Positions 14,901-57,916 of a stretch of 64,000 bases of DNA are shown in pieces. The DNA is taken from the NCBI GenBank assembly GCA_019244185.1, contig JAFATB010000025.1, positions 192,001 through 256,000 of the forward strand, written 5' to 3'. The notes beneath the pieces are model-generated. The model worked only from the letters and a program-made list of their open reading frames with translations. It ran no database searches and was not told where the DNA came from. Made by a program: the position numbers and the translations under genes. How positions within the stretch are numbered: position 1 is the stretch's first letter; the number at the start of each line of letters is the position of its first letter. This stretch comes from Acidobacteriota bacterium. GTDB lineage: Bacteria > Acidobacteriota > Thermoanaerobaculia > Gp7-AA8.

Positions 14901-15014
14901 GAATGAAGAATGCAGAACGCAGAATGAAGAATGAAGAATTGTGGTGGGCCGCCGTTCGGCGGCCACGTCTCCCTCTTTCTTCATTCTGCGTTCTGCGTTC
15001 TGCGTTCTTCATTC
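14901..15014. repeat. Heptamer-armed hairpin element, copy 1
   Basis: Left arm (GAATGAA/GAATGCA/GAACGCA)x5, GC core GGCCGCCG-tt-CGGCGGCC, complementary right arm. Confidence 0.9.
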
Positions 15015-19171: not shown

Positions 19172-20098
19172 ATGAACGGATCGCGGGCAGCTCGCCTGCT
19201 TCTCGGCCTCGCAACGAGCGCGCTCGCGTTGCGCTGCAGCGACGAGCGGCAGGCGGTCGCGGCGAATCCGCCGCGCATCGAGCTCCGCGCCACCGTCGCC
19301 AATCCGCAAACCGCCTCCGCCGTCGCGTCGATCGACGGCCGCATCGCGACGCTCGCCGTTGCCGAAGGCGCGCACGTCGAGCAAGGGCAGCTCCTGGCGA
19401 CGCTCGTCAATCCGTCCATCGAACGCGACCTCGCCTACGCGCGCGCGCAGGTCGCCGTCGCCGAACAGCGCCTCCGCGACGCGCGCAAGCCGATCGCCAC
19501 GTCCCTCATCCTCGGCGATGCCGGCGCCCGCGAGCGCGCATCGCAGGAGATCCTCAAGAACCGCGAGGCGCGCCGCGACCGCTACCGCGAGCTCTACGCG
19601 ACGCACGACGTGTCGAAGGAAGAGCTCGAGAACGCGGAGAACGAATACGCCGCCGCGCTCCGCGACTGGCTCGGCGAGCACGAGCGCGCGTCGATGAAGG
19701 TCGTGAGCACCGATACGAGCGTGCTGCAGCTCGAACTGGAGAAGGCGAAGGCGGAAGAGGCGTTCGTCGCCGACCGCAAGACGCTCCTCAACGTGACCGC
19801 GCCCCTCGCCGGCACCGTCACCCGCGTCCCCGTCCACCTCGGCGACAACGTCTTCACCCGCGACGCGATCGCCGACATCGCCAACACCCGCACCGCCGAG
19901 CTCCACGCCCCCATCGCCCCCGAGCTGACGAAGTACGTGCCCCCCGGCACGCTGGTGGAAGTCAAGGTGTTGACCGTCCCCCCTCGCGTGTTTCGCGTGC
20001 CCGTGAAGAGTGCGGCGAATGGAACGCTAGTCGTGGAAGTACCGAACCCCGAAGGGGCGGTGACGGGAGGGATGGGAGCGGTGGTGACGGTCAAATGA
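19172..20098 (+). CDS. HlyD/membrane-fusion periplasmic adaptor
   Basis: N-terminal signal/anchor; lipoyl half motifs GRIATLAVAEGAHVEQGQLL and VTAPLAGTV flanking an alpha-helical hairpin. Confidence 0.85.
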   Translation: MNGSRAARLLLGLATSALALRCSDERQAVAANPPRIELRATVANPQTASAVASIDGRIATLAVAEGAHVEQGQLLATLVNPSIERDLAYARAQVAVAEQRLRDARKPIATSLILGDAGARERASQEILKNREARRDRYRELYATHDVSKEELENAENEYAAALRDWLGEHERASMKVVSTDTSVLQLELEKAKAEEAFVADRKTLLNVTAPLAGTVTRVPVHLGDNVFTRDAIADIANTRTAELHAPIAPELTKYVPPGTLVEVKVLTVPPRVFRVPVKSAANGTLVVEVPNPEGAVTGGMGAVVTVK

Positions 20099-21486
20099 AA
20101 AAGCTGAATGAAGAATGCAGAACGCAGAATGAAGAATTGAGAAAGGGGAGCCCCAAGGCGCGAAGCGTCGTTCCCTTTTCTTCATTCTTCATTCTGCGTT
20201 CTGCATTCTTCATTCAGCTTTGTCTCCTCCCCCTCTCCGCCACAGCCGCTCCCCTCACCTTCCCCGCCGCGCTCGAACGCGCCATGCATCTGCGCGCGTC
20301 TGCTTCCACCTTCGCCGATCATGCGCAGGCGCTCGAGGGGCTGAACTTTCGCACGCTGCCGACGGTTCGCGCGGAGTCGGGGTTCAGCAGCGCGGAGAAT
20401 CTGAACCTCATCGCGCAGAACGTCACGCGCTTCGATGCGTTCACGGCGCTGATCAACGTCGACTATCCGTTGCTCAACGGCGGTGCGGATCGGCGGCATG
20501 TCGACGAGCTGAAAGCGGACGCGCAGATTCTGCGGCGGCGCGCCCTCGATGAGGCCGAGGACGTGTTTCGCGAGACGCTCGAAGCGTTCTCGGAGCTGTA
20601 CATCGCCGAGAAGCGCATGCAGTTGCTCGGAGACGGCTCGAAGCGCGCGGCGGAGCTGCGCGAGCGCGCCCACACGATGCTCGAGGCGGGACAGATCTCG
20701 AATGTCACCGCCGCGCAGTGGCAGGACGCGGCGCTCGCCGCCGAGTCGCAGATGGTCGACCTTCAGCTGCAGCGGCTCGAAGCGGAGACGCGCGTGAAGC
20801 AGCTCATCGGCGACACGGGTCAGGACGCGCTCGAAGTCTCGATCGATCTCGACGACCAGCCGATGCTGCGCGAGATCAAAGTCGACCAGCTCGTCGAGGC
20901 CGACGCCGCGGTCGCGACCGCGGAGCTCGTCGAGAACCGCAAGCGTCTCGCGCTCGAAGAAGCGATGGCGCTGCGCAAGCCGCAGGTGCTCCTCTCCGCG
21001 TTCGGCGGCGTGGCGTCCGTGCCGTCGACGTACAACACCGACGCGTCGAGCGGCACCTTCGGCATCTACGGCATGCGCGTCACGCTCGCCTTGCCGATGT
21101 TCGATGCCGCGGCCGCGCGCCGCGTCGCCGAGGCGCGGCTCGATCTCGAGGAAGCGCAGCGCGTCCGCAACGTCACCGCGGTCGCGACGCGCAACCGCAT
21201 CGACCTGCTCTGGCTCGCGGTCGCCGCGGCGGACCGTCGCATCGCGCTGCTCTCCGAAGCGGTCAACGTCGCACGCGAACGCGAGCAATCCGTCGCGCGG
21301 CTCGTCACCGCCGGCGTGCGTCCGGAAGCCGATCTCGTCGACGCGTCGAACGCGCTGGCGCGGCGCGAGAGCGATCTCCTCGCCGTGCGCGTCGACCGCT
21401 GGAAGCTGCAGCAGCGCGTGAAGTGGGGCGGCGCGGCGGTGTCGCAGGGCAGCTTCCTTGCGAAGACGCCGCCGGGTTTCCCGTGA
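20095..21486 (+). CDS. TolC-family outer membrane efflux protein
   Basis: LTFPAALERA, two repeats ending in VDYPLLNGG and TLALPMFD, coiled coils; ATGA overlap with the adaptor gene. Confidence 0.82.
   Translation: MKKLNEECRTQNEELRKGSPKARSVVPFSSFFILRSAFFIQLCLLPLSATAAPLTFPAALERAMHLRASASTFADHAQALEGLNFRTLPTVRAESGFSSAENLNLIAQNVTRFDAFTALINVDYPLLNGGADRRHVDELKADAQILRRRALDEAEDVFRETLEAFSELYIAEKRMQLLGDGSKRAAELRERAHTMLEAGQISNVTAAQWQDAALAAESQMVDLQLQRLEAETRVKQLIGDTGQDALEVSIDLDDQPMLREIKVDQLVEADAAVATAELVENRKRLALEEAMALRKPQVLLSAFGGVASVPSTYNTDASSGTFGIYGMRVTLALPMFDAAAARRVAEARLDLEEAQRVRNVTAVATRNRIDLLWLAVAAADRRIALLSEAVNVAREREQSVARLVTAGVRPEADLVDASNALARRESDLLAVRVDRWKLQQRVKWGGAAVSQGSFLAKTPPGFP
20100..20221. repeat. 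Heptamer-armed hairpin element, copy 2 (inside the TolC 5' coding region)
   Basis: AAAGCT-GAATGAA GAATGCA GAACGCA GAATGAA...TTCATTC TGCGTTC TGCATTC TTCATTC-AGCTTT. Confidence 0.9.
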
Positions 21487-40449: not shown

Positions 40450-43400
40450 TCACATCGCCGCCTGAACTTCCTGCGGCAGATGTTTCTTGAACAACCGGAT
40501 CAGGTCGTCGACCGCGAGCGGCTTCGCGACGTAGTCGTCGACCTTGAAGTAGTCGAGCGCCTCGTTGCGATACTTCCGGTCCGTGTACAGCCCCGTCATG
40601 ATGATCGCCTTCGAGCGCGAGGTCGACGGATCCTCTTTCAGCAGACGGCACATCTCGCGGCCGTCGAGCTTCGGCATGAACGCGTCGGAGAGAATGAGAT
40701 CCGGACCGTACTCGCGCGCGAGCGAGAGCCCTTCCTGGCCGTTCGCACCGACGACGAAGCCGTAGCCCATCGTCGTCACGACGGTGCGCACGATGAGCTG
40801 CACGTTCTCGTCGTCCTCGACGAGCAGGATGAGCGGGCGCTTCACCTCGTCCGGCGACGGATTGATGCGCGCGCCGAGGGAACGCTTCGAGCCGATCATC
40901 TTCCGCTCGAAGAGCGACGGCGGCGCGTCCATCCAGAAGCGCTCCTTGTACGACGCGGGCGCCTTGCAGAAGCAGTTGCCGCAGTGCGTGCAGAGCAGCG
41001 TGTTGTCGCGGCCGACGCAACTGCACCATTCCGCGCGCGTGGCGTCGAACGACTGCTGGCAGGTGACGCACGTGACCTCGTAGCCGTCGTGCGCGCGCAC
41101 CACGAGGCGCGGCTGCGACGGCTCGGCCAGCACGTCCGCGAGCGGCACGTCGTCCGCGTGCGACTCGTCGTGGCGCTCGTCGTTCGACACGTCCTGGCGA
41201 TGCAGCTCGTGCAGGTCTTCCTGCACCGGCAGTCCGGCCACGCCTTCGAGATGGCGCTGCAAGAGGTTGATGAGATCCGTGATCGCCACCGGCTTGGCGA
41301 TGTAGTCGTCGACGTGGAAGCGCTTGACCGCCTCGCTGCGGTACTTCGTGTCGGTGTAGAGGCCGGTCATCACGACCATCTTGCATTCGGCGCCGAGCGG
41401 CTCTTCCTTCAGCATGCGGCACATCTCGCGGCCGTCGAGCTTCGGCATGAACGCGTCGGAGAGAATGAGATTCGGGCGATAGAGGCGCGCGATGTTGAGG
41501 CCGTCCTGGCCGTTCGTCGCGTAGATGAAGCCGTATCCGAGGTTCGAGCAGACGCGCTGCACGATCGCCTGGATCTCCTCGTCGTCTTCGACGCACAGCA
41601 CCAGCGGACGCGTCACGTCTTCGGGCTGCGCGTTGTCGGGCAGATGTCCCTGCCGCCGCACCTCGGCGCTCTTGCGCTCGAAGAGTCGCGGCGGCGCCTG
41701 CACCCAGAACTTCTCTTTGTATGAGGGAGGCGCCTTGCAGAAGCACGCCAGGCAGTTCGTGCAGACGAGCGTGCGCTCCTTCGTGAGGCAGCTGCACCAG
41801 TCGGCGTCGATAGCGTTGAAGAGCGCGCGGCAGGAGAAGCACGCGACGTCGTATTCGTCGTTCGACGCGTTCGCCGCGCTGGCAGCGCTGATGGGCTCGA
41901 CTTCTTCCGGCTCGTGCTCGCCGACCGGCGCGGGACGCACGATGCCCATCGGCGCCGCGGGCGCGTGCGGCGCCTGCGGCATGCGCTGCGGCGGCGCTGC
42001 GGGAGCCTTCGTCACGCGCGGCAGCATCTGCGTCGCCACCAGCTCTTCCGGTTTCTCGCGCGCCTGCTGCGCGAGGCGCATCAGCTCGTCGACGTCGTAC
42101 GGGCGGACGATGAACGCCGCGTAGCGGACGCTCTGCGGCAGCAACCCGGACGAGCGGCCGGTGACGAGGATCGGCAGGTTCGGCGCCTTCTCCGCGATCG
42201 TGCGATAGATCGTCTCGAATTCCGGGTGCTCGGCGTCGAGACAGATCGCGTCGGGGCGGAAGCGGAACAGCTCATCGACGGCGTCGACCCAGCGCTCGAC
42301 GACTTCGACTTCCACGCCGCGCAGGCGCAGCTTCGGCACCGCGGTGTCGGCGGTGGCGCGGCGGCGCTCGAGCATGAGCAGGCGCGGCTTGCGCGCGTTG
42401 TGCGCCTTGCGGCGCGCGGACGGCGCCGGCGACGAGAGGTTCGTGCGGCGCGGCGGCTGATTGCCGGAGATCTTGCGGTTGTTGAGGTTGACGCCGGAGC
42501 GCTCCTCACCGCGGAAGAGGTCCGCGATCGCGCCGATCCACGACGTGCGTTGCGCGGTGCGCGAGTCGCTCGCCGGGCGCGGTGCGGCCGGCATCTGCAT
42601 CGCGGACGCGGCGGCGCCGGGCGTCTGCTCGTCGCGATTGCGGCGCGCTTCCTCTTCGACTTCGCGGCGCATCTGTTCGACGCGCGCTTCCGCCTCGCGG
42701 GCGATGGCCTCGCGCTCGGCGGCGACTTCTTCTTCGAGCTTCGCCCGCAACGCGAGGCGTTCGGCTTCGAGTCGTGCTTCGAGCTCGCTGGCGAGCCGCG
42801 CCTCGAGCTCGCGGCCGGCCGCTTCCCGCTCCGCGCGCTGCGCCTCGACGGTCAGGTGTTCCGCGGCGAGACGCTCTTCGAGCTCGCGCTCGCGGGCGAC
42901 GCGTTCGGCGAGCTCGCGTTCGAGGCGTTCGCGTTCGACAAGCGCGACGCGCTGGGCTTCCTCGGCGGCGAGACGCGCTTCGAGCGCGGCCTGCTCGGCG
43001 TCCTGCGCCGCGCGTTCCGCTTCGAGGCGCTCCCGCTCGATCCGTTCGAGCTCCGCGACGCCGGCGTGCTCGCCGGTACGCTGCGCGAACTCGCGCTCGA
43101 AACGTTCGGCCAGCTCGCGTTCGCGCTCCGCGAGCTCGCGTTGGGCGCGCTCGCGTTCTTCCCGCGCCGCGGTCTCGCGTGCGACGCGCTCGCGTTCTTC
43201 CGCTTCACGCGCGACGCGCTCCGCGACTTCGCGCTCCATGCGCGCGGCCAGCTCGCGTTCGCGTTCAGCCAGCTCCCGTTCGGCGCGTTCGCGCTCTTCC
43301 CGCGCCGCGGTTTCGCGTGCGACTCGCTCGCGTTCTTCCGCCTCACGTGCGACTCGCTCCGCGACTTCGCGTTCCATGCGCGCGGCGAGCTCGCGTTCGC

Positions 43401-44196
43401 GTTCAGCCAGCTCCCGCTCGACGCGTTCGCGCTCTTCACGCGCGGCCGCTTCGCGAGCGACGCGCTCACGTTCTTCCGCTTCGCGTGCGACGCGTTCGGC
43501 AACTTCGCGCTCCATGCGCGCCGCCAGCTCGCGTTCGCGTTCGGCGAGTTCCCGCTCGGCGCGTTCGCGCTCTTCGCGCGCGGCCACTTCTCGCGCCGTA
43601 CGCTCGCGTTCTTCCGCCGCGAGCCGCTCGCGCAGCGCGCGTTCCTGCGCGGTCCGCTCGGCGAGCTCGCGTTCGAGGCGCTCGCGTTCGACGCGGGCGG
43701 TCTGTTCGGCCTGCGCCGCGCGTTGCTCGGCTTCGCGGCGCGCGGCGTCGGCCTCGCGGCGCAGACGCTCGAGCTCCGCGGCGGTCGAGGCGTCGCGCGT
43801 ACTTTCCTTTTCCTCCGCGAGCGGCAGCACGCCGAGCGGTCCCTGCCGCGCGTCGAGCTGCGGACGCATCGGAGCGCGCGAGCTCATCGCCGCACGCGGC
43901 GCCGTCAGCAGCGTCACGATGCCGCCCGCCAGCGCGCCGGCGACGGTCAGCATCGCCAGATAGACGGCGGAACGGACATCCGGAAACACGAACACCCAGG
44001 CGGCGATGGAAGCGAGGAGGGCCGTCAGGCCGCCCTGCCACCCTCCCTTCCAGGCGGAAAGGGCGATGGCCGCCACGAACACCACGAGCAGCAGGGGTGC
44101 GGATGCCGGCACGAGCAGGCCGGCACCGGTCGCCACGATCACGAGATCGAGCGCAATGCCATATCGGAGGATACGCCGGCGGGTGGCCTCGGTCAT
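40450..44196 (-). CDS. Membrane-anchored coiled-coil multi-receiver protein with two Cys8 domains
   Basis: Four N-terminal TM segments, E/R-rich coil, degenerate REC, then 2x (CxxC..CxC..CxxCxxCxC + REC with VEDD, SDAFMP, KP). Confidence 0.88.
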   Translation of the reverse strand: MTEATRRRILRYGIALDLVIVATGAGLLVPASAPLLLVVFVAAIALSAWKGGWQGGLTALLASIAAWVFVFPDVRSAVYLAMLTVAGALAGGIVTLLTAPRAAMSSRAPMRPQLDARQGPLGVLPLAEEKESTRDASTAAELERLRREADAARREAEQRAAQAEQTARVERERLERELAERTAQERALRERLAAEERERTAREVAAREERERAERELAERERELAARMEREVAERVAREAEERERVAREAAAREERERVERELAERERELAARMEREVAERVAREAEERERVARETAAREERERAERELAERERELAARMEREVAERVAREAEERERVARETAAREERERAQRELAERERELAERFEREFAQRTGEHAGVAELERIERERLEAERAAQDAEQAALEARLAAEEAQRVALVERERLERELAERVARERELEERLAAEHLTVEAQRAEREAAGRELEARLASELEARLEAERLALRAKLEEEVAAEREAIAREAEARVEQMRREVEEEARRNRDEQTPGAAASAMQMPAAPRPASDSRTAQRTSWIGAIADLFRGEERSGVNLNNRKISGNQPPRRTNLSSPAPSARRKAHNARKPRLLMLERRRATADTAVPKLRLRGVEVEVVERWVDAVDELFRFRPDAICLDAEHPEFETIYRTIAEKAPNLPILVTGRSSGLLPQSVRYAAFIVRPYDVDELMRLAQQAREKPEELVATQMLPRVTKAPAAPPQRMPQAPHAPAAPMGIVRPAPVGEHEPEEVEPISAASAANASNDEYDVACFSCRALFNAIDADWCSCLTKERTLVCTNCLACFCKAPPSYKEKFWVQAPPRLFERKSAEVRRQGHLPDNAQPEDVTRPLVLCVEDDEEIQAIVQRVCSNLGYGFIYATNGQDGLNIARLYRPNLILSDAFMPKLDGREMCRMLKEEPLGAECKMVVMTGLYTDTKYRSEAVKRFHVDDYIAKPVAITDLINLLQRHLEGVAGLPVQEDLHELHRQDVSNDERHDESHADDVPLADVLAEPSQPRLVVRAHDGYEVTCVTCQQSFDATRAEWCSCVGRDNTLLCTHCGNCFCKAPASYKERFWMDAPPSLFERKMIGSKRSLGARINPSPDEVKRPLILLVEDDENVQLIVRTVVTTMGYGFVVGANGQEGLSLAREYGPDLILSDAFMPKLDGREMCRLLKEDPSTSRSKAIIMTGLYTDRKYRNEALDYFKVDDYVAKPLAVDDLIRLFKKHLPQEVQAAM
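43090..43590 (-). repeat. Coding tandem repeat, 138-bp unit (46 aa) x ~3.6
   Basis: Unit ExAAREERERxERELAERERELAARMEREVAERVAREAEERERVAR; Met codons at 43239, 43377 and 43515 are 138 bp apart. Confidence 0.9.
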
Positions 44197-49552: not shown

Positions 49553-50200
49553 TTACCCCAACGCCGTCAGAAATGGCGCGGCCAGCATGACCGCTCGCGC
49601 GAGGTGATCCGCCTCCGTGAAGCCTGACGATTTGCGCGGCTTGAAGGAGTGATCGCCGTCCTCGAGCCACTCGACGCGGATCGAGCGCGACAGCGGATAC
49701 GAGGCGACTTCGTCGGGACCGCCGAACGGGTCGCGCGTGCCTTGAATGATGAGCGCCCGCGTGCGCAGCGTTTCGAGATGCGCGGTGCGAAGTTGCGCGG
49801 GACGTCCGGGCGGATGGAACGGATAGCCGAAGCAGACCAGGCCGCGGACGCCGGCGTCGTCCGCGATCATGCTGGCGATGCGGCCGCCCATCGACGCGCC
49901 GCCGATGGCCACGCGCGCGCCGCCGCCGTGCTCGTCGATGACGCGCCGCCACGTGTCGAGCAGCACCTGCGGCCGGTCCGGCGAGCCGCGCTTCCCGCCC
50001 TCGCGCCGCGCGGCCATGTACGGGAACTCGAAGCGCACCACGCGGATGCCTTCCGCCGCGAGCCCCCGCGCGATCGCGTTCATGAACGGCCGGTCCATCG
50101 GCCCGCCCGCGCCGTGCGCGAAGAGAAAGCGATGCTTCGCGCGCTCGGGTCCGTCGGTGAGGTAGTGCAGTGTCTTCGCAGTCGTCTTGGCCATTGTCAT
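49553..50200 (-). CDS. Alpha/beta hydrolase
   Basis: FAHGAGG, GGASMGGR, GYPFHPPG, QGTRDPFG, DGDHSF. Confidence 0.92.
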   Translation of the reverse strand: MTMAKTTAKTLHYLTDGPERAKHRFLFAHGAGGPMDRPFMNAIARGLAAEGIRVVRFEFPYMAARREGGKRGSPDRPQVLLDTWRRVIDEHGGGARVAIGGASMGGRIASMIADDAGVRGLVCFGYPFHPPGRPAQLRTAHLETLRTRALIIQGTRDPFGGPDEVASYPLSRSIRVEWLEDGDHSFKPRKSSGFTEADHLARAVMLAAPFLTALG

Positions 50201-51300
50201 CACCAGCCGCGCACCGGTTTCCACGCGTCGACGAGCTCGCCGCCGTCGACGACGTGATACGTGTCGAAGAGCGCCGCGGTGAGACAGGAGTGGTTCGGGA
50301 TGATGCGCACTTGCGTCCCGACCGGCACATGCATTTCGGTGCGAACCTTTCCGTGCTCTTGCGACAGCGCGATGAGCGTCATCGGCAGCGGCCGCAGCTC
50401 GAGATCGCACACGAGGCCGTAGCCGAAGCGTGGATCGATGTGATCGGGTCCCAGATCCTTGGACAGCGCCAGCGCGCCGGCGTCGACGATGAGCGACTGG
50501 CGCTCGGGGTACGAGCCGACCACGGTCGCGAGCACCGAGGCCGCGCAATCGGAGAGGGCGCACGAGCCGATCGTCGCCTGGAAGGCGTCGTAGAAAACAT
50601 AATTGCCGGGGCGCACTTCATCGCAGTCATCGAAGCGGTCGACGACCGAGAGCGTCGGCGTCGAGCCGATGCTGCGCAGCGTCTCGCCCAGCCCCTCGCC
50701 GGCGAGCAGCGCGCGGAAGCGCGCCAGCGACCCCGACTCCTCCGCCGCGACGCGCCGGATCTCCGCGACGTCGCGCGCGTTGTACGAATGCCCCGCATGC
50801 GTGAGCAGCCCCTGAAAGCGGATGGTCTCGCTGCTCGCGAGCGCCCGCGCCAGACGCACGCTGTCGGGACTCTCCGGATCGACGCCGGCGCGGTGATAGC
50901 CGCAGTCGACTTTGAGGAACGCGTCGAAAACGACGCCGTGGCTCGCGCCGAACTCCTCCATTGCTCGCCGCGTGGTCTCCGAGTCGACGAGCAGCGCCAG
51001 GCGCTCGACGCGCCCCGCGAGGTCCGCCGCGCGCGCGAGCTTCTCCGGCGCGATCGGCACCGCGTACGTGATGTCGCGGAAGCCGGCGTCGGCGAAGAAC
51101 TCCGCCTCCGCGAGCGTCGACACCGTGATCGCGCCGGCGTTCCCGCCGTGCTGCATCCGCGCGATCTCGCGCGTCTTGTGCGTCTTCACGTGCGGGCGGA
51201 AGTGGACGTTCGATGCCGACGCGCGCTCGCGCATGCGGTCACAGTTGTTCGCGAGCGTTTTCAGATCGACGAGCAGCGCGGGGGTGGTGAGGTTCAGCAT
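50200..51300 (-). CDS. DSD1/D-threonine-aldolase-type PLP enzyme (alanine racemase fold)
   Basis: TPALLVD, RPHVKTHK, HAGHSY, IGSTPT, EVRPGNYVFYD, LSQEHG, PNHSC. Confidence 0.92.
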   Translation of the reverse strand: MLNLTTPALLVDLKTLANNCDRMRERASASNVHFRPHVKTHKTREIARMQHGGNAGAITVSTLAEAEFFADAGFRDITYAVPIAPEKLARAADLAGRVERLALLVDSETTRRAMEEFGASHGVVFDAFLKVDCGYHRAGVDPESPDSVRLARALASSETIRFQGLLTHAGHSYNARDVAEIRRVAAEESGSLARFRALLAGEGLGETLRSIGSTPTLSVVDRFDDCDEVRPGNYVFYDAFQATIGSCALSDCAASVLATVVGSYPERQSLIVDAGALALSKDLGPDHIDPRFGYGLVCDLELRPLPMTLIALSQEHGKVRTEMHVPVGTQVRIIPNHSCLTAALFDTYHVVDGGELVDAWKPVRGW

Positions 51301-51304
51301 GATT

Positions 51305-51391
51305 GAATGAAGAACGCAGAACGCAGAATGAAGAATTGAGAACGGGGCTCGGTTTCTTCATTCTACGTTCTGCGTTCTGCGTTCTTCATTC
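51305..51391. repeat. Heptamer-armed hairpin element, copy 3
   Basis: GAATGAA GAACGCA GAACGCA GAATGAA GAATT...TTCATTC TACGTTC TGCGTTC TGCGTTC TTCATTC; fills the divergent intergenic gap. Confidence 0.9.
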
Positions 51392-51398
51392 GTCTTTC

Positions 51399-52517
51399 AT
51401 GAGAAAGGTTCTTCATATCGACATGGACGCGTTCTACGCCTCCGTAGAACAGCGTGACGATCCTTCGCTGAAGGGCAAGCCGGTCATCGTCGGCTGGGCG
51501 GGAGAGCGGAGCGTCGTCTGCGCGGCGTCGTACGAGGCGCGCAAGTTCGGCGTGCATTCGGCGATGCCGGCCTCGCGCGCGAAACGCCTCTGCCCCGAAG
51601 CTGTCTGGCGGCATCCTGACTTCGAGCGCTATCGCGCGGTGTCGCAGCAGATCCGCGCGATCTTCGAACGCCATACGCCGCTCGTCGAGCCGCTCTCGCT
51701 CGACGAGGCGTATCTCGACGTCACGCACGAGCTGACCGGCATCCCCACCGCGACCGAGGCCGCGGAAATGATCCGCCGCGAGATCCGCGACGAGACGCAT
51801 CTCACCGCCTCCGCCGGCGTCGCGCCGAACAAGTTCCTCGCGAAGATCGCCTCCGACTGGCGCAAGCCCGACGGCATCTTCGTCATCCGCCCGCATCAGG
51901 TCGAGCGCTTCCTCGTCACTCTGCCCGTGCGCAAGATCCCCGGCGTCGGCAAAGCGACCGAAGCCGTGTTGCGCGAGATGGGCATCGTCACCGTCGGCGA
52001 CCTGCAGCGCTTCGAGCAGCCGGAGCTCGTGCAGCATTTCGGCAAGTGGGGCACGCGCCTCTGGGAGCTCGCACGCGGCATCGACGAGAGTCCGGTCGAG
52101 CCGTCGCGCAAACGCAAGTCGTGGTCGAGCGAGAACACGTTCGGCACCGACGTCACGCGCGCCGAAGCCGCGGAATGGATCCGCGAGCAGTGCGAGAAGT
52201 TGTGGAACGCGCTCGAACAGCGCGGCCTCCGCGGACGCACCGTCACCGTGAAGCTCCGCACGCCGCGCTTCGAGACCGCGACGCGCCAGCTCACGCCGCC
52301 GTCGCCGCCGTCATCCGCCGAAGAGATCGCGGACATCGCGGTGGCGCTGCTGGGCAAGTTTGCATTCGCCGAAGACGCGCGATTCCGCCTCGTGGGCGTG
52401 GGGGTGGGGAACTTTGATGAGGAGGAAGAGGAGGGCGGCGGCGGCGGCGAGGCCGAAGAGGCTACGTTGTTCGAAGCACCGATGAATGAAGGACGCAGAA
52501 CGCAGAACGCAGAATGA
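51399..52517 (+). CDS. dinB: DNA polymerase IV
   Basis: HIDMDAFYASVE, SYEARKFGV, EPLSLDEAYLD, NKFLAKIASD, IPGVG. Confidence 0.97.
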   Translation: MRKVLHIDMDAFYASVEQRDDPSLKGKPVIVGWAGERSVVCAASYEARKFGVHSAMPASRAKRLCPEAVWRHPDFERYRAVSQQIRAIFERHTPLVEPLSLDEAYLDVTHELTGIPTATEAAEMIRREIRDETHLTASAGVAPNKFLAKIASDWRKPDGIFVIRPHQVERFLVTLPVRKIPGVGKATEAVLREMGIVTVGDLQRFEQPELVQHFGKWGTRLWELARGIDESPVEPSRKRKSWSSENTFGTDVTRAEAAEWIREQCEKLWNALEQRGLRGRTVTVKLRTPRFETATRQLTPPSPPSSAEEIADIAVALLGKFAFAEDARFRLVGVGVGNFDEEEEEGGGGGEAEEATLFEAPMNEGRRTQNAE

Positions 52518-52594
52518 AGAAAGGGGAACGTGGCCGCCGACGGCGGCCCACCACAATTCTTCATTCTTCATTCTGCGTTCTGCGTTCTTCATTC
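52484..52594. repeat. Heptamer-armed hairpin element, copy 4 (near reverse complement of copy 1)
   Basis: Core ACGTGGCCGCCGACGGCGGCCCACCACAATT matches the copy 1 core on the opposite strand. Confidence 0.9.
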
Positions 52595-52621
52595 AGCTTC
52601 TCCTCTACAATGCCCGCCGCC

Positions 52622-53611
52622 ATGACCACCGCCAGCTCCCGTACTCCCATCACCGTCGCGCAATTCGGCATCGGTCCCATCGGCGCCGAGATCGCGCGCC
52701 TGCTGTTTTCGAAGCCGTGGATCCACGTCGTTGCCGCCGTCGACATCGATCCGGAGAAGATCGGGAAAGATATCGGCGACGTGATCGGACTCGGCCGAAA
52801 GACGGGCGTCGTCGTCACGCGCGAGCTCGACGTGAAGGCCGACGTCGTCTGCCACTCCACCGGCTCGCGCCTGCGCGATGTCGCGTCGCAGCTGAAGATG
52901 CTGCTCGCGCGCGGCTCGCACGTCGTCTCGACCTGCGAGGAGCTTTCGTTCCCGCTCGACGCGGAGATCCGCGAGGAGCTGCAACAGACCGCGCGCGCGA
53001 ACAACGTCGCCATCCTCGGCACCGGCGTCAATCCCGGCTTCGTCATGGACAAGCTGCCGCTCACGATCACCGCCGTCTGCCAGGAAGTGCGCTCCGTCGA
53101 GATCATCCGCATCCAGAACGCGTCCACGCGCCGCGAGCCGCTGCAGCGCAAAGTCGGCGCGAGCATGACCGTCGACGAGTTCCGCGCCGCCGTCGCCGCC
53201 GGCAAGATCAAGCACATGGGTCTCCGCGAGTCCCTCATGCTCGTCGGCAACGGCCTCGGCGTCGAGTTCGACAGCGTCACCGACGAAGTCATCGAGCCGA
53301 TCGTCGCCGACCGCGAGATCGTGACGCAGTACCTGAAGGTCGCGCCGGGCCAGGTCGCCGGCGTGCACCAGACCATCTACGGCAAGGGCCGCATCGACGT
53401 GTCGCTCGAGCTGCGCATGTACGTCGGCGCGGAAGACGTCGCGGCCGATCGCGTGATCGTGCACGGCGTGCCCGACATCGAGCTCGAGGTGAAAGGCGGC
53501 ATTCACGGCGACCGCGCCACCGCGGCCATGGTCGTCAACTGCATCCCGCGCATCATGCAGGCGCGCGTGGGCGTGCTGACGATGGACGACGTCGGCGTCA
53601 GCTTCCGTTGA
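52622..53611 (+). CDS. NAD(P)H-dependent amine/2,4-diaminopentanoate dehydrogenase-like (DapB-like N-domain)
   Basis: QFGIGPIG Rossmann motif, VVSTCEEL, GTGVNPGFVMD, GDRATAA. Confidence 0.85.
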   Translation: MTTASSRTPITVAQFGIGPIGAEIARLLFSKPWIHVVAAVDIDPEKIGKDIGDVIGLGRKTGVVVTRELDVKADVVCHSTGSRLRDVASQLKMLLARGSHVVSTCEELSFPLDAEIREELQQTARANNVAILGTGVNPGFVMDKLPLTITAVCQEVRSVEIIRIQNASTRREPLQRKVGASMTVDEFRAAVAAGKIKHMGLRESLMLVGNGLGVEFDSVTDEVIEPIVADREIVTQYLKVAPGQVAGVHQTIYGKGRIDVSLELRMYVGAEDVAADRVIVHGVPDIELEVKGGIHGDRATAAMVVNCIPRIMQARVGVLTMDDVGVSFR

Positions 53612-53849
53612 CACGAACGCGCAGCGCGCGCCACACCAATGCGATCAGACCGAACGCGATCCAGACCACGATCCACGCTGCGCTCGCCGACTCGTGCCAG
53701 TTCCACCCGGCGAGCGTGAAGGCCCAGAGCGCGTAGACGAGCAGGAAGACGCGGCGGTGATGCGCGTCGTCGTCGACGCCGGCGGCGATGCTCGCGCCGA
53801 GGATCAGCGTGGGGACCAGACCGAGAAGCAGGTTGAGGAAGAGCGTCAA
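53598..53849 (-). CDS. Small membrane hypothetical protein
   Basis: Three hydrophobic segments; start uncertain. Confidence 0.55.
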   Translation of the reverse strand: MTLFLNLLLGLVPTLILGASIAAGVDDDAHHRRVFLLVYALWAFTLAGWNWHESASAAWIVVWIAFGLIALVWRALRVRVNGS

Positions 53850-53868
53850 CGGGCGAACAATATCCGAG

Positions 53869-54702
53869 ATGAACACGCATCGCCGCATCGCCGCCATCGT
53901 CGTGCTGCTGTTCGCGCCGCGCCTCGCGCTGGCGTGGGGAAACTTCGGTCATCAGGTGATCGGCGAGCTCGCGCAGAGCCGCCTGAATCCGAAAGCCGGC
54001 GCACGCGTGCTGGCGCTGCTGCAGAGCGACGAGGACTGTCCGTCGAAGCCGGTCCTGCGCTCGATGGGCGACGTGGCCTCGCTGCCCGATGATTGGCGCC
54101 GGCCGGAAGGCGGCGAGATCACGAGCGACTGGCACTTCGTCAACATCGACATCGCGAACCCGAAGTACGTCGAGGCGCGCGACTGCCCGAGCGGGGACTG
54201 CGTCGTGCGTCGCATCGACCGCATGATGGCCGTCCTGCGCGACAAGACGCGCAGCACGTGCGAGCAGAAGGACGCGCTGATTTATCTGATTCACTTCGTC
54301 GGCGACATCCATCAGCCGCTGCACACCGGCTTCGGCCACATGGCCAACGGCGATCCCGACCGCGGCGGCAATCTCGTGAAGGTCACGCTCGACGGGCAGG
54401 AGACGAATCTCCATTCGGCGTGGGACACGGGTCTCATCCGCCGCCAGCAATGCTCGCTCGCGGAGTGGCTGCGCCATCTGCGCGCGGACGTCGTCCCGAC
54501 GCTCACCGCGGCGCAGCGCAACGATCTCGACGCCGTGCATTGGGCGAACGAGTCGCACGGCGAGGCCATTCGCGCGCACGTCGCGGACAAGACCACGCTC
54601 CGCGACACGTACATCAAGACCGCGAACGCGATCATCGAGAAGCGGCTCGCGCTCGCGGCGGTGCGGCTCGCGAACGTGCTCGACGAATTACTAGGGAAAT
54701 AG
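53869..54702 (+). CDS. Secreted S1/P1 nuclease
   Basis: Signal peptide ending ALA-WGNFGH; WHFVN, HFVGDIHQPLH, DRGGN, NLHSAWD. Confidence 0.95.
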   Translation: MNTHRRIAAIVVLLFAPRLALAWGNFGHQVIGELAQSRLNPKAGARVLALLQSDEDCPSKPVLRSMGDVASLPDDWRRPEGGEITSDWHFVNIDIANPKYVEARDCPSGDCVVRRIDRMMAVLRDKTRSTCEQKDALIYLIHFVGDIHQPLHTGFGHMANGDPDRGGNLVKVTLDGQETNLHSAWDTGLIRRQQCSLAEWLRHLRADVVPTLTAAQRNDLDAVHWANESHGEAIRAHVADKTTLRDTYIKTANAIIEKRLALAAVRLANVLDELLGK

Positions 54703-54715
54703 TTGCCGGCGCGCG

Positions 54716-55642
54716 TCAGCGATAGCGCAGGTCGATGACCTTGCGCACCGCGTCCTTGGCCGCGTTGGGCAGGTTCTGCATGCGCGTGAGCACGTCGTTG
54801 AACGCGTGCGACTCGCCGCCGTGCTTGAAGCATTCGCCGCAGCGCGGCAGGTTCGTGAAGTCGCGGCGCTCGAACGCGGCCTGCATCTCGGCGAAGCGCG
54901 GACTGTCGAGAATCTCGCGCAGCGTCTGGGTCTTGAGGTCGCCGAGGATTTGATCGCCGTGCGCGTCGTAGCAGCAGTGCGTCACGCGGCCGTCGGCGAA
55001 GACGACCACCCACGTGAAGAACGCGCCCTGCACGCAGCCGAAGAACGTGCCGTGCAGGTCGGTTTCCTCGTTGACGTCGAGCGGCTCGCAGGTCTTCTCG
55101 ATCACGCGCGCGTTGCGGAACTGCTTGAGATCGAACAGAGCGCGGAAGTCGTCGACGGTTTCGTCGACCGTGAGGCGCGAGCGCATCTTCTGGATCTCGA
55201 TGCGCAGCGGCGCGCCCTTGGCCTGCACGAGGAACTTGCGCGTGAGGTCGACGAGCTTCTCGAAGTCGCCGCCGGTGCGCAGCTGCGGATAGACCTTCGG
55301 ATCGATCGAGTCGACGCAGATGCGGATGCGGCGCAGCGGCGAGGCGAGCAGCTTCGCGCCGACCTCCGGCGTCAGCACCAGCCCATTCGTCGACAAGCTC
55401 GCCTCGGGGAACAAACGAATCGCATCATCGATGCGCGGGTAAAGCAGCGGCTCCCCCATCTCGTGCAGCCACTTGAGGCGCAGGCCGAGGCCGTGGATCT
55501 CGCGTTCGGCCTTCTCGACGAGCGGCCAGGGCATGTCCTCGTACGGACGGCGCAGCACCGGCAGCGGGCACATGCCGCAGCGCAGGTTGCACTTGGAGGT
55601 GAGCTCGAGGCCGACCTTGATGCGTGAGGGAGAGAACTTCAT
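54716..55642 (-). CDS. Radical SAM / SPASM-Twitch protein
   Basis: CNLRCGMC, MGEPLL, STNG; C-terminal C...DGRVTHCC..D...CGEC. Confidence 0.92.
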   Translation of the reverse strand: MKFSPSRIKVGLELTSKCNLRCGMCPLPVLRRPYEDMPWPLVEKAEREIHGLGLRLKWLHEMGEPLLYPRIDDAIRLFPEASLSTNGLVLTPEVGAKLLASPLRRIRICVDSIDPKVYPQLRTGGDFEKLVDLTRKFLVQAKGAPLRIEIQKMRSRLTVDETVDDFRALFDLKQFRNARVIEKTCEPLDVNEETDLHGTFFGCVQGAFFTWVVVFADGRVTHCCYDAHGDQILGDLKTQTLREILDSPRFAEMQAAFERRDFTNLPRCGECFKHGGESHAFNDVLTRMQNLPNAAKDAVRKVIDLRYR

Positions 55643-55654
55643 GAGAGGACGGAT

Positions 55655-55749
55655 GAAGGCAGAAGGCAGAAGGCAGGAGGCAGAACGATGACCGCCGCAG
55701 GCGCACCGCACTTCTGCCTTCTGCCTTCTGCCTTCTGCCCTCTGCCTTC
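55655..55749. repeat. Heptamer-armed hairpin element, copy 5 (GAAGGCA variant)
   Basis: (GAAGGCA)x3 GGAGGCA GAA...TTC(TGCCTTC)x3 TGCCCTC TGCCTTC. Confidence 0.88.
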
Positions 55750-55754
55750 GAGGT

Positions 55755-56837
55755 TCATTTCGCGTTGACCAAGCGCTTTAGCACCGCCCCATATTCCGCC
55801 CAGGAGAATCGCCGCGCGCTCGCGGCCGCCGCGCGCTCCATCGCCTCGCGGTCGCCGCGCGCGAAAAACGCGTCGACGGCACGCGCGAGCGCGGCGGGAT
55901 CCTCGGGCGCGACGAGCATCCCGTTCACGCCTTCCTCGATGATCTCGGGCAGGCCGCCGACGCGCGTGGCGATCACGGGACGCGCGAAGTGAAACGCCGT
56001 CAGCGCGACGCCGCTCTGCGCCTCGATGCGATACGGCGCGAGCACGACGTCGCACGCGGCAAAGTACGTCGCAATCTCCGCGTCGGGGATGAAGCGGAAC
56101 TCGAGGCGGACGTTCGCGAGGCCGCGCGCGAGCTCGCGATACTCCTCCTCCCCTTTCCACCACGCCTCGCCCGCGACGACGAGCGTGACCTCCGTCTGCA
56201 GCTGACGCCACGCGCGCAGCGCGAGATCGAGTCCTTTGAACGGGCGCACGTGGCCGAAGAAAAGCGCCACGTTGCCGGAGAGTCCGAGCTGCCGCCGCGC
56301 GTCGTCGCGCGACGGAATCGCGCCGCCGAGCTCGTGCACGGGAAGGAACGTCGCCACGATCGGACGCGGCGTGCGCTTCGCGGCGTCGGCCGCCTCGCTC
56401 CGCGCGTGCACGACGAGCACGTCGCCGCGGCGCAGCACGCGATTGGTGAGGAAGCGCTTCCACGCCGCCGGCTCCTTGTCGCCGATGTTGTGACACTGCA
56501 AAACGACGCGCGTCGATTTCGGCAGAAACAGGAGCAGCGTCAGGTACGGCAGCGCCCAGACCCAGATCCACCAGACCAGGATCACCGCGTCGGGACGCTC
56601 GCGCCGCAGCAGCAGCGCGGTGCGTAGCCACGTCAGCGGATTGACGATGTCAAGGAGAAAGCGCGCGTTCGCGCGCGGCAGCGTCGGATCGACGTCGTCG
56701 CCGCCGGGATAGAGAAACTTCGGGAACTGGCGCTTGAACGAGATCACGTCGCACTGCAGCTCGCGAGCGAGTTGGGTCGTGCAGTACGCGATGCCGGCGC
56801 GATACGGAAAGACCGGCCCGATGAGAACGGTCTTCAC
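55755..56837 (-). CDS. GT4 glycosyltransferase
   Basis: IGPVFPYRAGIA, FFGHVRPFKGL, PYRIEAQSG, RVGGLPE; GTGA overlap. Confidence 0.92.
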   Translation of the reverse strand: MKTVLIGPVFPYRAGIAYCTTQLARELQCDVISFKRQFPKFLYPGGDDVDPTLPRANARFLLDIVNPLTWLRTALLLRRERPDAVILVWWIWVWALPYLTLLLFLPKSTRVVLQCHNIGDKEPAAWKRFLTNRVLRRGDVLVVHARSEAADAAKRTPRPIVATFLPVHELGGAIPSRDDARRQLGLSGNVALFFGHVRPFKGLDLALRAWRQLQTEVTLVVAGEAWWKGEEEYRELARGLANVRLEFRFIPDAEIATYFAACDVVLAPYRIEAQSGVALTAFHFARPVIATRVGGLPEIIEEGVNGMLVAPEDPAALARAVDAFFARGDREAMERAAAASARRFSWAEYGAVLKRLVNAK

Positions 56838-57916
56838 GCCGCCGAGAGGAAGTTTACGACCGTCGACGCGAGATACGCGCCCCACGTGCGCACGTCGAAC
56901 ACGAGCGACGACGACATGAAGCAGGAGTGCGTGCAGTGGCACTCCTTCGCGCGGATGGCGCGGCGCTGCTCGTCGGCCGCGTCCGAGAACCAGAGTTGGT
57001 CCCAGTCATAGCCGGTGTCGCGCACGTTGCCGACCGCATCGCGCAGCTCGCACATGCGCACTTCGCCGCGCGCGTCGAGGACGCCCGAGACGCGCCCCGC
57101 GTGGCACGGGCGCACCTGCGTCTCCTGCTCGAGCACGGCCAGCTCCATCTTGCGCGAGTACACCTTCACGAACTTCAGGAACCCGTCGTAGTTGCGGTAG
57201 CCGCTCCAGTACTCCTCGAGCTTCGGCAGCAGCTCGCGGTAACGCTCCGTCGTGATCGGCTGGATGTTCTTGTCCGGCTGATCGCCGCGCAGCATCTCGA
57301 ACGAATGGAACGACACTTCCGAAAAATCGCGCCGGACGCCGTCGAACATTACGTCGAGATCGTCGGCGTTGTACGTGCACAGACACGTGTGCACGTTCAC
57401 GGTGAGATTCGGGTACTTCGCGCGCAGCGGCATGAGCTGCGCGTAGGTCTTCTTCGCCTTCTCGTAGTTGTTCGGCACGCCGCGGATCCAGTCGTGCTTC
57501 TCGCCGATGTGATCGATCGACAGATTGACGACGATCTGCGTGTTCGGGCAGCGCTGCAGCGTCGACTCGACCTGCCGCGCGATGAGATCGCTCGTGATCG
57601 CGCCGGTGGGGATGGTGATCTGCTTGACGTGGTTGTTCGTCGAGAGGAACTCGCACAGCTCCGGCAGATCGCGCCGCAGGAACGGCTCGCCGCCCGACAT
57701 CACGATGAAGAGCAGATCGCCCATCGACGAGAGCGTCTTCTTCAGCTCGTCGAGCGAGAGCTCGTGCTCTTTGTTCTTGCGCAGCTGTTCCCAGTTGAAG
57801 CAGGTGCGGCAGAACGAGTTGCAGTCGTAGGTCAGGCCGAGGATGAGATAGACCGGGCGCATGCCCCGCTTGTCGACGAGGTAGCGCAGGTACGGCAGCT
57901 TGTCGGAGAACTTCAT
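56834..57916 (-). CDS. Radical SAM / SPASM-Twitch protein
   Basis: CNSFCRTC, SGGEPFLR, CHAG, GEVRMCE, CHCTHSC. Confidence 0.92.
   Translation of the reverse strand: MKFSDKLPYLRYLVDKRGMRPVYLILGLTYDCNSFCRTCFNWEQLRKNKEHELSLDELKKTLSSMGDLLFIVMSGGEPFLRRDLPELCEFLSTNNHVKQITIPTGAITSDLIARQVESTLQRCPNTQIVVNLSIDHIGEKHDWIRGVPNNYEKAKKTYAQLMPLRAKYPNLTVNVHTCLCTYNADDLDVMFDGVRRDFSEVSFHSFEMLRGDQPDKNIQPITTERYRELLPKLEEYWSGYRNYDGFLKFVKVYSRKMELAVLEQETQVRPCHAGRVSGVLDARGEVRMCELRDAVGNVRDTGYDWDQLWFSDAADEQRRAIRAKECHCTHSCFMSSSLVFDVRTWGAYLASTVVNFLSAA

Follow-up and report, generated by a model that had tools for sequence, protein, structure and literature searches.

How can a long hairpin lie between two genes of an operon whose stop and start codons overlap in related genomes, and still let the ribosome reach the downstream gene? 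The question is raised by a 64,000-nucleotide (nt) stretch of an Acidobacteriota bacterium (GenBank assembly GCA_019244185.1, contig JAFATB010000025.1, positions 192,001 to 256,000 of the forward strand; hereafter the window), which carries five copies of a hairpin whose arms are inverted arrays of 7-base units. The original prediction described these hairpins as translation stop-restart cassettes that preserve operon coupling. Comparison of copies within the genome and of orthologous junctions in related genomes supports selection for such a relay at former ATGA junctions, seen at three orthologous sites, but not a relay as a general property of the copies: 11 of 57 usable co-directional ones are arranged in this way. 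Judged from sequence comparison, it is probable that mobile heptamer hairpins settle at stop/start junctions and survive there as a relay, as an in-frame insert or with a closed arm.

The relay arrangement is found in the window at copy 5, where the following features adjoin:

55755-56837, minus strand: upstream cistron, a group-1 (GT4-like) glycosyltransferase (gene call and Pfam)
55639-55758, minus strand: bridging (relay) open reading frame (ORF) of 39 codons, with ATGA overlaps at both ends and its frame kept in orthologues of differing length
55648-55749 (listed extent to 55758), no strand assigned: copy 5 hairpin with arms 55648-55685 and 55712-55749, GAAGGCA/TGCCTTC heptamer runs and a loop of 26 nt
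54716-55642, minus strand: downstream cistron, a radical SAM/SPASM protein (gene call and Pfam Radical_SAM and SPASM)

Direct reading of the sequence agrees with the earlier statement that copy 5 lies inside a 39-codon ORF with an ATGA overlap at each end. The ATG of the bridging ORF (55758-55756, minus strand) shares bases with the glycosyltransferase stop TGA (55757-55755), and its TGA (55641-55639, minus strand) shares bases with the radical-SAM start ATG (55642-55640). Read on the minus strand, the layout is ...GCGAA-ATGA-ACCTC, (GAAGGCA)n, loop, (TGCCTTC)n, ATCCGTCCTCTC-ATGA-AGTTC. The RNA of copy 5 is predicted to fold with -74.8 kcal/mol (z = -8.7; 0/200 shuffles fold equally well), with base pairing between the left AUGA and the UCAU overlapping the downstream AUG. 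That the radical-SAM gene has no obvious ribosome-binding site also proved correct, GGAG, GAGG, AGGA and AAGG being absent from the 20 bases before its ATG.

The same junction was compared in related genomes. In the hairpin-free genomes G018 and G035, from which the empty state was read (six other hairpin-free loci had no anchor match), the two genes meet in a plain ATGA overlap. Where a hairpin is present, the gap between the genes measures 112 nt in the genome that holds the window (G000), 103 in G031, 97 in G017 and 82 in G043; all four lengths are 1 mod 3, and the bridging ORFs have 39, 36, 34 and 29 codons, respectively. G034 also keeps the bridging ORF, which makes a relay in 5/5 hairpin-filled genomes.

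Two further junctions outside the window behave in the same way. At site C4:644858, where hairpin-free G045 has an ATGA overlap, every one of the seven open-arm hairpins keeps a relay ORF in a gap that is 1 mod 3 long (115, 85, 97, 94, 88, 103 and 88 nt). At the same site, hairpins of the GAAAATT type have a closed arm: each unit holds a TGA, which rotates through the three frames. None of five such hairpins has a relay ORF (gaps of 104, 114, 98, 92 and 99 nt; open-arm versus closed-arm contrast, p = 0.001), and the unpublished genome G032 adds a sixth with a gap of 137 nt. Hairpins that stop all three frames showed no frame preference. At site C4:257558 hairpin-free G001 again has an ATGA overlap. 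Here the gap is 1 mod 3 in 15/16 published genomes, over 10 lengths and at least 8 unit types, and 14 of the 16 carry an ORF of exact NTGA...NTGA form; the unpublished G032 fits too. GAAAATT-type copies at this site have lost the in-frame TGA through irregular units. Across the orthologous sites the bridging ORFs stay open over 29-46 codons. Their peptides are unrelated between unit types at one site, and it would therefore be the act of translation that is conserved, not its product.

To place these junctions among all copies, we scanned G000 (5.30 Mb, 26 contigs, 67% G+C, 98.9% complete) with regular expressions and found 81 paired hairpins, along with 28 lone arms. Their arms are built of GAANNNN units in tandem, chiefly GAATGAA, GAACGCA, GAATGCA and GAATTGA, with GAAGGCA, GAACGAT and GAATTTC as minor families, and the family consensus reaches out to AAAAGCT|GAATGAA...TTCATTC|AGCTTTT. 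The predicted RNA folds average -65 kcal/mol with a median stem of 45 pairs. A model of the element with fixed geometry or fixed length was ruled out, as palindrome length and spacer co-vary. Genes were called with a codon-statistics caller made for this analysis (4504 genes, 92% coding). The commonest gene junction is the -4 nt overlap (624 gene pairs) and 42% of called genes start with NTGA. A Shine-Dalgarno-like 4-mer precedes only 34.5% of called genes in the whole genome, and the host appears to depend heavily on coupled or Shine-Dalgarno-independent initiation. The hairpins lie between co-directional genes in 63 cases, divergent genes in 11 and convergent genes in 7, a co-directional share close to the general mix (69% of gaps genome-wide, p = 0.09). 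Four co-directional copies inside a called gene were excluded; in 46 of the remaining 59 the upstream stop lies within the 5' arm or ends at most 16 nt before the first GAA heptamer. For the ORF test 57 copies were usable, two being dropped with a stop or start within the arms.

Frame concordance with the next gene, a genome-wide check proposed with the original prediction, was not above chance: the frame of the next gene is open back through the loop and 3' arm in 40/59 copies, the other frames in 40/59 and 47/59. The copy-5-type arrangement, by contrast, is above chance. A bridging ORF ending on the next start was found in 11/57 usable co-directional copies versus 10/513 ordinary co-directional gaps of 70-220 nt, which served as control (Fisher p = 6e-7), and nine of the 11 (9/57 copies) have the exact ATGA overlap at the next start. 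Shifting the loop in silico by +1 nt cuts the 11 to 3, and by +2 nt to 0. As crossing ORFs we further took those that extend across the loop from a start within -5 to +4 of the upstream stop, and classed them by their frame relative to the next start. Such ORFs are present in 23 of the 57 usable G000 copies. The counts were:

G000 (25 crossing ORFs): relay frame 17, in frame 5, overrun frame 3
G011 and G017 (14 usable copies, 6 ORFs): relay 3, in frame 2, overrun 1
G031 (14 usable copies, 9 ORFs): relay 9, in frame 0, overrun 0
All genomes: relay 29, in frame 7, overrun 4

The crossing ORFs are biased in frame, with 29/40 in the relay frame (p = 5e-7 against one third), as against 29 relay, 42 in frame and 32 overrun (relay 29/103) in ordinary gaps. 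A test independent of whether an ORF is open points the same way, with a gap of 1 mod 3 in 23/38 copies with an NTGA upstream stop versus 13/47 others.

Starting from the observed sequence arrangement, frame bias and conservation across orthologues, we infer that ribosomes initiate, unwind the hairpin and re-initiate. The hairpins would be gene-less copies of a mobile cassette with arms of inverted 7-base unit runs, inserting directly after stop codons and very often on an ATGA where a stop and the next start overlap. The old start codon would stay behind at the upstream stop, and ribosomes ending the upstream gene could re-start there. In a relay, the orphan frame would cross the hairpin and terminate on the downstream start itself or slightly ahead of it; the hairpin would be melted and the ribosome handed to the next gene. 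An in-frame insert would be a multiple of three tolerated by the protein, as in the signal peptide of a TolC-like protein, and in a closed arm every frame would be stopped at once by the 5' arm. A selfish repeat could in this way persist in tightly coupled operons if a throw-away reading frame passes ribosomes across it. Such relays can be detected by sequence comparison, from insert lengths fixed modulo three, with closed-arm hairpins as internal control. The idea that the element is built or selected to be translated holds for selection on which insertions survive, but an element built for translation is not supported. Likewise, the complementary arm, said to be stop-free in any frame, is so in the window copies, but some genome copies hold TTCTAAA or TTCTGAA units.

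Several points weigh against a relay, or against its generality. The common GAATGAA/GAATTGA arm stops two of three frames, 18/81 copies lie between divergent or convergent genes, and 34/57 usable co-directional G000 copies have no crossing ORF. The frame classes are independent of called starts, but the counts of ORFs that end on a start depend on them, and the caller was wrong at the TolC-like gene. Kinship among the orthologous genomes means that the p-values overstate independence. Contrary to simple expectation, Shine-Dalgarno-like motifs are not rarer before relay-fed genes (8/14 vs 7/43). Sense and antisense folds of the hairpins do not differ in stability (34 vs 28, p = 0.40); an ad hoc orientation marker, the TTGA unit, counts 24 sense and 10 antisense. 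The ATGA on both sides could be partly a target-site duplication instead of a product of selection: ATGA or ATGAA flanks both sides of the copy-5 site, a pattern that selection would keep as well. The whole element is an inverted repeat. No general target-site duplication was found in the flanks of the hairpin copies. Finally, selection might act only against out-of-frame overrun, against which the removal of the in-frame TGA at C4:257558 argues.

If the hairpins were purely selfish palindromic repeats of which nothing is translated, the overlaps and open frames would be by-products of tight packing, of the ATGA in GAATGAA, of the stop-free 3' arm and of a possible ATGA target duplication. Their contexts, which resemble those of all intergenic gaps (63/81 co-directional vs 69%), the about equal openness of the three frames through the 3' arm, a copy number of 0 to 338 per strand in 35 congeners and the 42% of called genes that begin with NTGA in any case all agree with this. 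We nevertheless regard it as unlikely: it predicts neither 29/40 crossing ORFs in one frame, nor that lengths at three orthologous sites change by multiples of three, nor the contrast of open and closed arms at a single junction. Frames would also be irrelevant if the hairpins were RNase III processing sites, at which the stem is cut and the operon transcript split or its stability set. A copy of the element that carries a gene is laid out like the Coxiella 23S rRNA intervening sequence (IVS), which is excised by RNase III according to the excerpted text of PMC4990558; Correia elements are cleaved by the same enzyme, as stated in an extract of PMC10969869; the stems have about 45 pairs and G000 has a single RNase III gene. 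Cleavage alone leaves the conservation of frame unexplained, and as the sole account it seems rather unlikely, although it may coexist with a relay, in which translation would stop the stem from forming.

We consider it very unlikely that the hairpins are transcription terminators or attenuators, with translation through the stem giving anti-termination or protection from Rho. The consensus does have AGCTTTT after a long stem and the 3' arm is C-rich and G-poor, but the base of the stem is AT-rich without a real U-tract, and the elements lie inside operons and even inside a coding region. The possibility that the mini-ORFs encode functional small peptides is more remote still. It would account for ORFs kept open at 29-46 codons; the peptides, however, are translated repeat units that differ wholly between unit families at the same site, and that of copy 5 found no match in NCBIfam.

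The other survival mode that leaves a frame open, the in-frame insert, would apply to copy 2:

20080-20241, no strand assigned: copy 2 hairpin of GAATGAA/GAATGCA/GAACGCA units, which lengthens the TolC-like gene in frame by 117 nt within its signal-peptide region
20095-21486, plus strand: TolC-like (OEP) gene, start revised to the ATG overlapping the HlyD-adaptor stop (hairpin-free relatives and Pfam)

As had been noticed, the ATG on the adaptor stop reads in frame through this hairpin into the TolC-like gene, and the sequence agrees. In the hairpin-free genomes G015, G038 and G045 the gene starts at an ATGA or TGATG overlap and encodes a normal signal peptide, whereas in G000 the 117-nt insert comes after its second codon. 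The TolC frame is open through differing inserts in 10/10 of the relatives' loci shown and in G000, and G000, G011, G005 and G039 visibly retain the start at the adaptor stop. The called start at 20284 is thus probably wrong, and copy 2 appears to be translated in frame and to contribute to the TolC-like signal peptide. Coding inserts of this kind are a minority in G000 (2 copies). As the TolC-like gene illustrates, starts beside such repeats are easily mis-called, and bridging ORFs should not be annotated as proteins.

Inserts without heptamers were also encountered at both the copy-2 and the copy-5 site. The copy-5 site of G014 (locus L223) holds an unrelated spacer of about 100 nt between ATGA and GTGA, and the copy-2 site of G005 (locus L240) a REP-like GC palindrome lying in frame within the TolC-like gene. 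From these two cases the junctions look like general insertion hot spots or refuges.

The remaining window copies, for which restarts had also been proposed, are coincidental or otherwise explained:

14901-15014, no strand assigned: copy 1 hairpin, with the GGDEF stop in its arm and the acyl carrier protein start 77 nt on, with its own ribosome-binding site
51305-51391, no strand assigned: copy 3 hairpin, taking up the space that separates dinB (start 51399) from a divergent racemase-like gene (start 51300)
52483-52595, no strand assigned: copy 4 hairpin, providing the last 11 dinB codons and the stop, followed by TACAAT at 52606-52611 and a probable start at 52622

All five copies lie between or within protein-coding genes, none in a 23S rRNA helix, and their loops of 7-40 nt hold no S23p/PF05635 ORF. 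Pfam identified the flanking genes as glycosyltransferase group 1, Radical_SAM and SPASM, IMS (DinB), HlyD, OEP (TolC-like), GGDEF and acyl carrier protein. After copy 1, a GGAGG-like site precedes the start of the acyl carrier protein gene. At copy 3, the TTG ORF proposed to run into dinB exists (51303-52517), but a relay role is not supported, since the copy lies between divergent genes and the TTG frame has no upstream cistron. The copy-3 site is empty in 7 relatives, with a gap of only 7-25 nt; in 4 further relatives (one the unpublished G002) it is occupied by other heptamer arrays, among them a CGACAAC-type hairpin. In the hairpin-free loci aligned to window 51298-51401 (L097-L107) the racemase-like and dinB start codons are accordingly 7-25 nt apart, which leaves room for each promoter only within the neighbouring gene. 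Both genomes in which the hairpin is of the GAATGAA type have AGA as the second dinB codon; the other genomes shown have CGG or CGC there.

At copy 4, dinB ends in ...LFA* in the relatives and runs 11 codons into the arm in G000. The in-frame ATG at 52514 and its ORF (52514-53611) exist as described, but a relay is again not supported, as the next gene has its own promoter: a TAnAAT box about 10 nt before its ATG is conserved in 7/7 aligned relatives. The ATG at 52514 is best read as a coincidence. The gene after dinB probably starts at 52622 and not at the called start 52610, which would give a leaderless or very short-leader transcript.

A probable origin of the hairpins lies 13 kb before window base 1. 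The sole PF05635 match in G000 (C2:178776-179087) belongs to a cassette (C2:178732-179174; locus L095, 233-675) and lies exactly between two lone arms identical to window arms. Its ORF of 120 codons starts immediately behind the final GAA of the 5' arm, its stop falls within the initial unit of the 3' arm, and the protein matches PF05635 (73 bits), TIGR02436 (four-helix bundle, 89 bits) and PDB 2rld (E = 7e-22). PF05635 is described as functionally uncharacterised in an excerpt of PMC11270868. All 35 genus genomes searched hold 1-9 PF05635 genes. By manual reading of the best PF05635 loci from 30 congeners, inverted arrays are present on both sides in 25/30 (23/28 excluding the unpublished G002 and G032), and the flanking unit sequence varies from gene to gene. 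The arms of the syntenic orthologue consist of GAATGAA/GAACGCA in G000, GAATGCA in G011, GAAGGCA in G031 and G034 and GAATGAA/GAATTTC in G042; the cassette arm type is the abundant dispersed type in the first four genomes and mixed in G042, and orthologous junctions hold different unit types in different genomes. The gene-less hairpins are probably copies of the PF05635 cassette.

An exact 24-base unit string, GAATGAAGAAYGCAGAAYGCAGAA, occurs at at least 94 loci in many phyla; the matches listed include Acidobacteriota, Planctomycetota, Verrucomicrobiota, Chloroflexota, Cyanobacteria (Moorena), Clostridia, Ignavibacteriales and a Peribacteria genome, and 31/94 among them have an inverted array within about 424 nt. 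A matching PF05635 ORF piece was found at one of the 94 (L058), with flanks of only 200 nt and a narrow profile, which in the 30 congener loci picked up 11 ORF pieces. Array counts range from 0 to 338 per strand across the 35 congener genomes. No Y1 transposase was found: PF01797, the only transposase family searched, has no match in the 98.9%-complete G000. Tentatively, the hairpins may be partners of the PF05635 (S23p/Avd-like) protein in a transposase-free system of the REPIN-RAYT kind, a much larger family of which the classical rRNA intervening sequences would be only the rRNA-resident members; we see this as a possibility and not as the favoured view. Recognition of its own 7-base unit by the protein would then promote hairpin spread or homogenisation, with the hairpins homing to stop/start junctions. 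Through the PF05635 link, the nature and the movement of rRNA intervening sequences and their S23p proteins become open to test.

The coupling principle has already been described for mycobacterial MIRU repeats. MIRUs (Supply et al. 1997, in the summary given in PMC12548453) are short mobile repeats inserted at start codons in operons, and an internal ORF is coupled to the gene at -4 nt spacing, minimising the effect on expression (same summary in PMC12548453). The hairpins here likewise lie at start codons within operons, with ATGA in the empty relatives at three sites, and an ORF overlaps the upstream stop and the next start in copy 5 and in 9/57 copies, though not in most. They differ as long perfect hairpins of inverted 7-base unit arrays, in their tie to a PF05635 gene-bearing copy, in their Acidobacteriota-like hosts with unit strings in many phyla, and in that some families close all three frames and have no ORF. 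Given the heptamer architecture, homology to mycobacterial MIRUs is unlikely. New here are this architecture, with open- and closed-arm families as natural control, the tie to the PF05635 gene-bearing copy and the comparative evidence for selection.

The cassette itself resembles the Coxiella burnetii 23S IVS, for which the available portion of PMC4990558 reports a loop that holds an S23p ORF, a terminal stem of 28 bp, demonstrated excision by RNase III and two to three tandem GACAGAT heptamers, variable in unit number, directly before the ATG. Shared are the S23p/PF05635 ORF in the loop, the long-stem terminal inverted repeats and the heptamers before the ATG; ORF-bearing IVSs are regarded there as selfish and horizontally spread. 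The elements here, however, lie between or inside protein-coding genes and not in rRNA helix 45, and there are about 80 gene-less copies per genome. In the searchable literature, heptameric repeats and S23p were linked only in the Coxiella paper, and no description of dispersed gene-less heptamer hairpins was found.

Rickettsia palindromic elements (Ogata et al. 2000, as excerpted in PMC10969869) are in-frame inserts translated within proteins. Only copy 2, a 117-nt in-frame insert that keeps the host ORF open, is comparable; most copies here lie at junctions, in-frame inserts are a minority and there is no conserved element peptide. With REP/REPIN-RAYT systems, as outlined in parts of PMC3116915 and PMC2817692, the hairpins share a single-copy gene flanked by inverted repeats that are also dispersed genome-wide, a syntenic site of this gene in relatives, and repeats whose sequence and abundance vary between genomes; the flanked gene, however, encodes a four-helix-bundle protein and not a Y1 transposase. 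Correia/NEMIS and ERIC elements are also co-transcribed hairpin repeats beside genes that alter the fate of the mRNA, but act via RNase III or RNase E cleavage and promoters (excerpts of PMC10969869 and PMC2649163), and the portion of PMC10969869 at hand describes no relay ORF for them. No publication joining miniature inverted-repeat elements with translational coupling was found in the searchable literature. Rfam returned only sub-threshold microRNA-like hairpin matches for 50000-57000 at E <= 1, and no family for these hairpins.

Some further repeat structures were observed. The loops of a subset of hairpins (window 14938-14976 and 52522-52556, and other copies in the genome) carry a conserved tag, TTGTGGTGG, or its complement, CCACCACAA, which adjoins a short GC-rich hairpin with a variable stem; the heptamer hairpin seems here to enclose a REP-type sequence. 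At C12:146269-146548 of G000, two hairpins 181 nt apart have the same left flanks, a local duplication that includes the element. In the window, a 138-nt tandem repeat of about 4 copies with 86% identity (43079-43675) lies inside a minus-strand ORF (40450-44196) and is probably a repetitive coiled-coil-type coding region.

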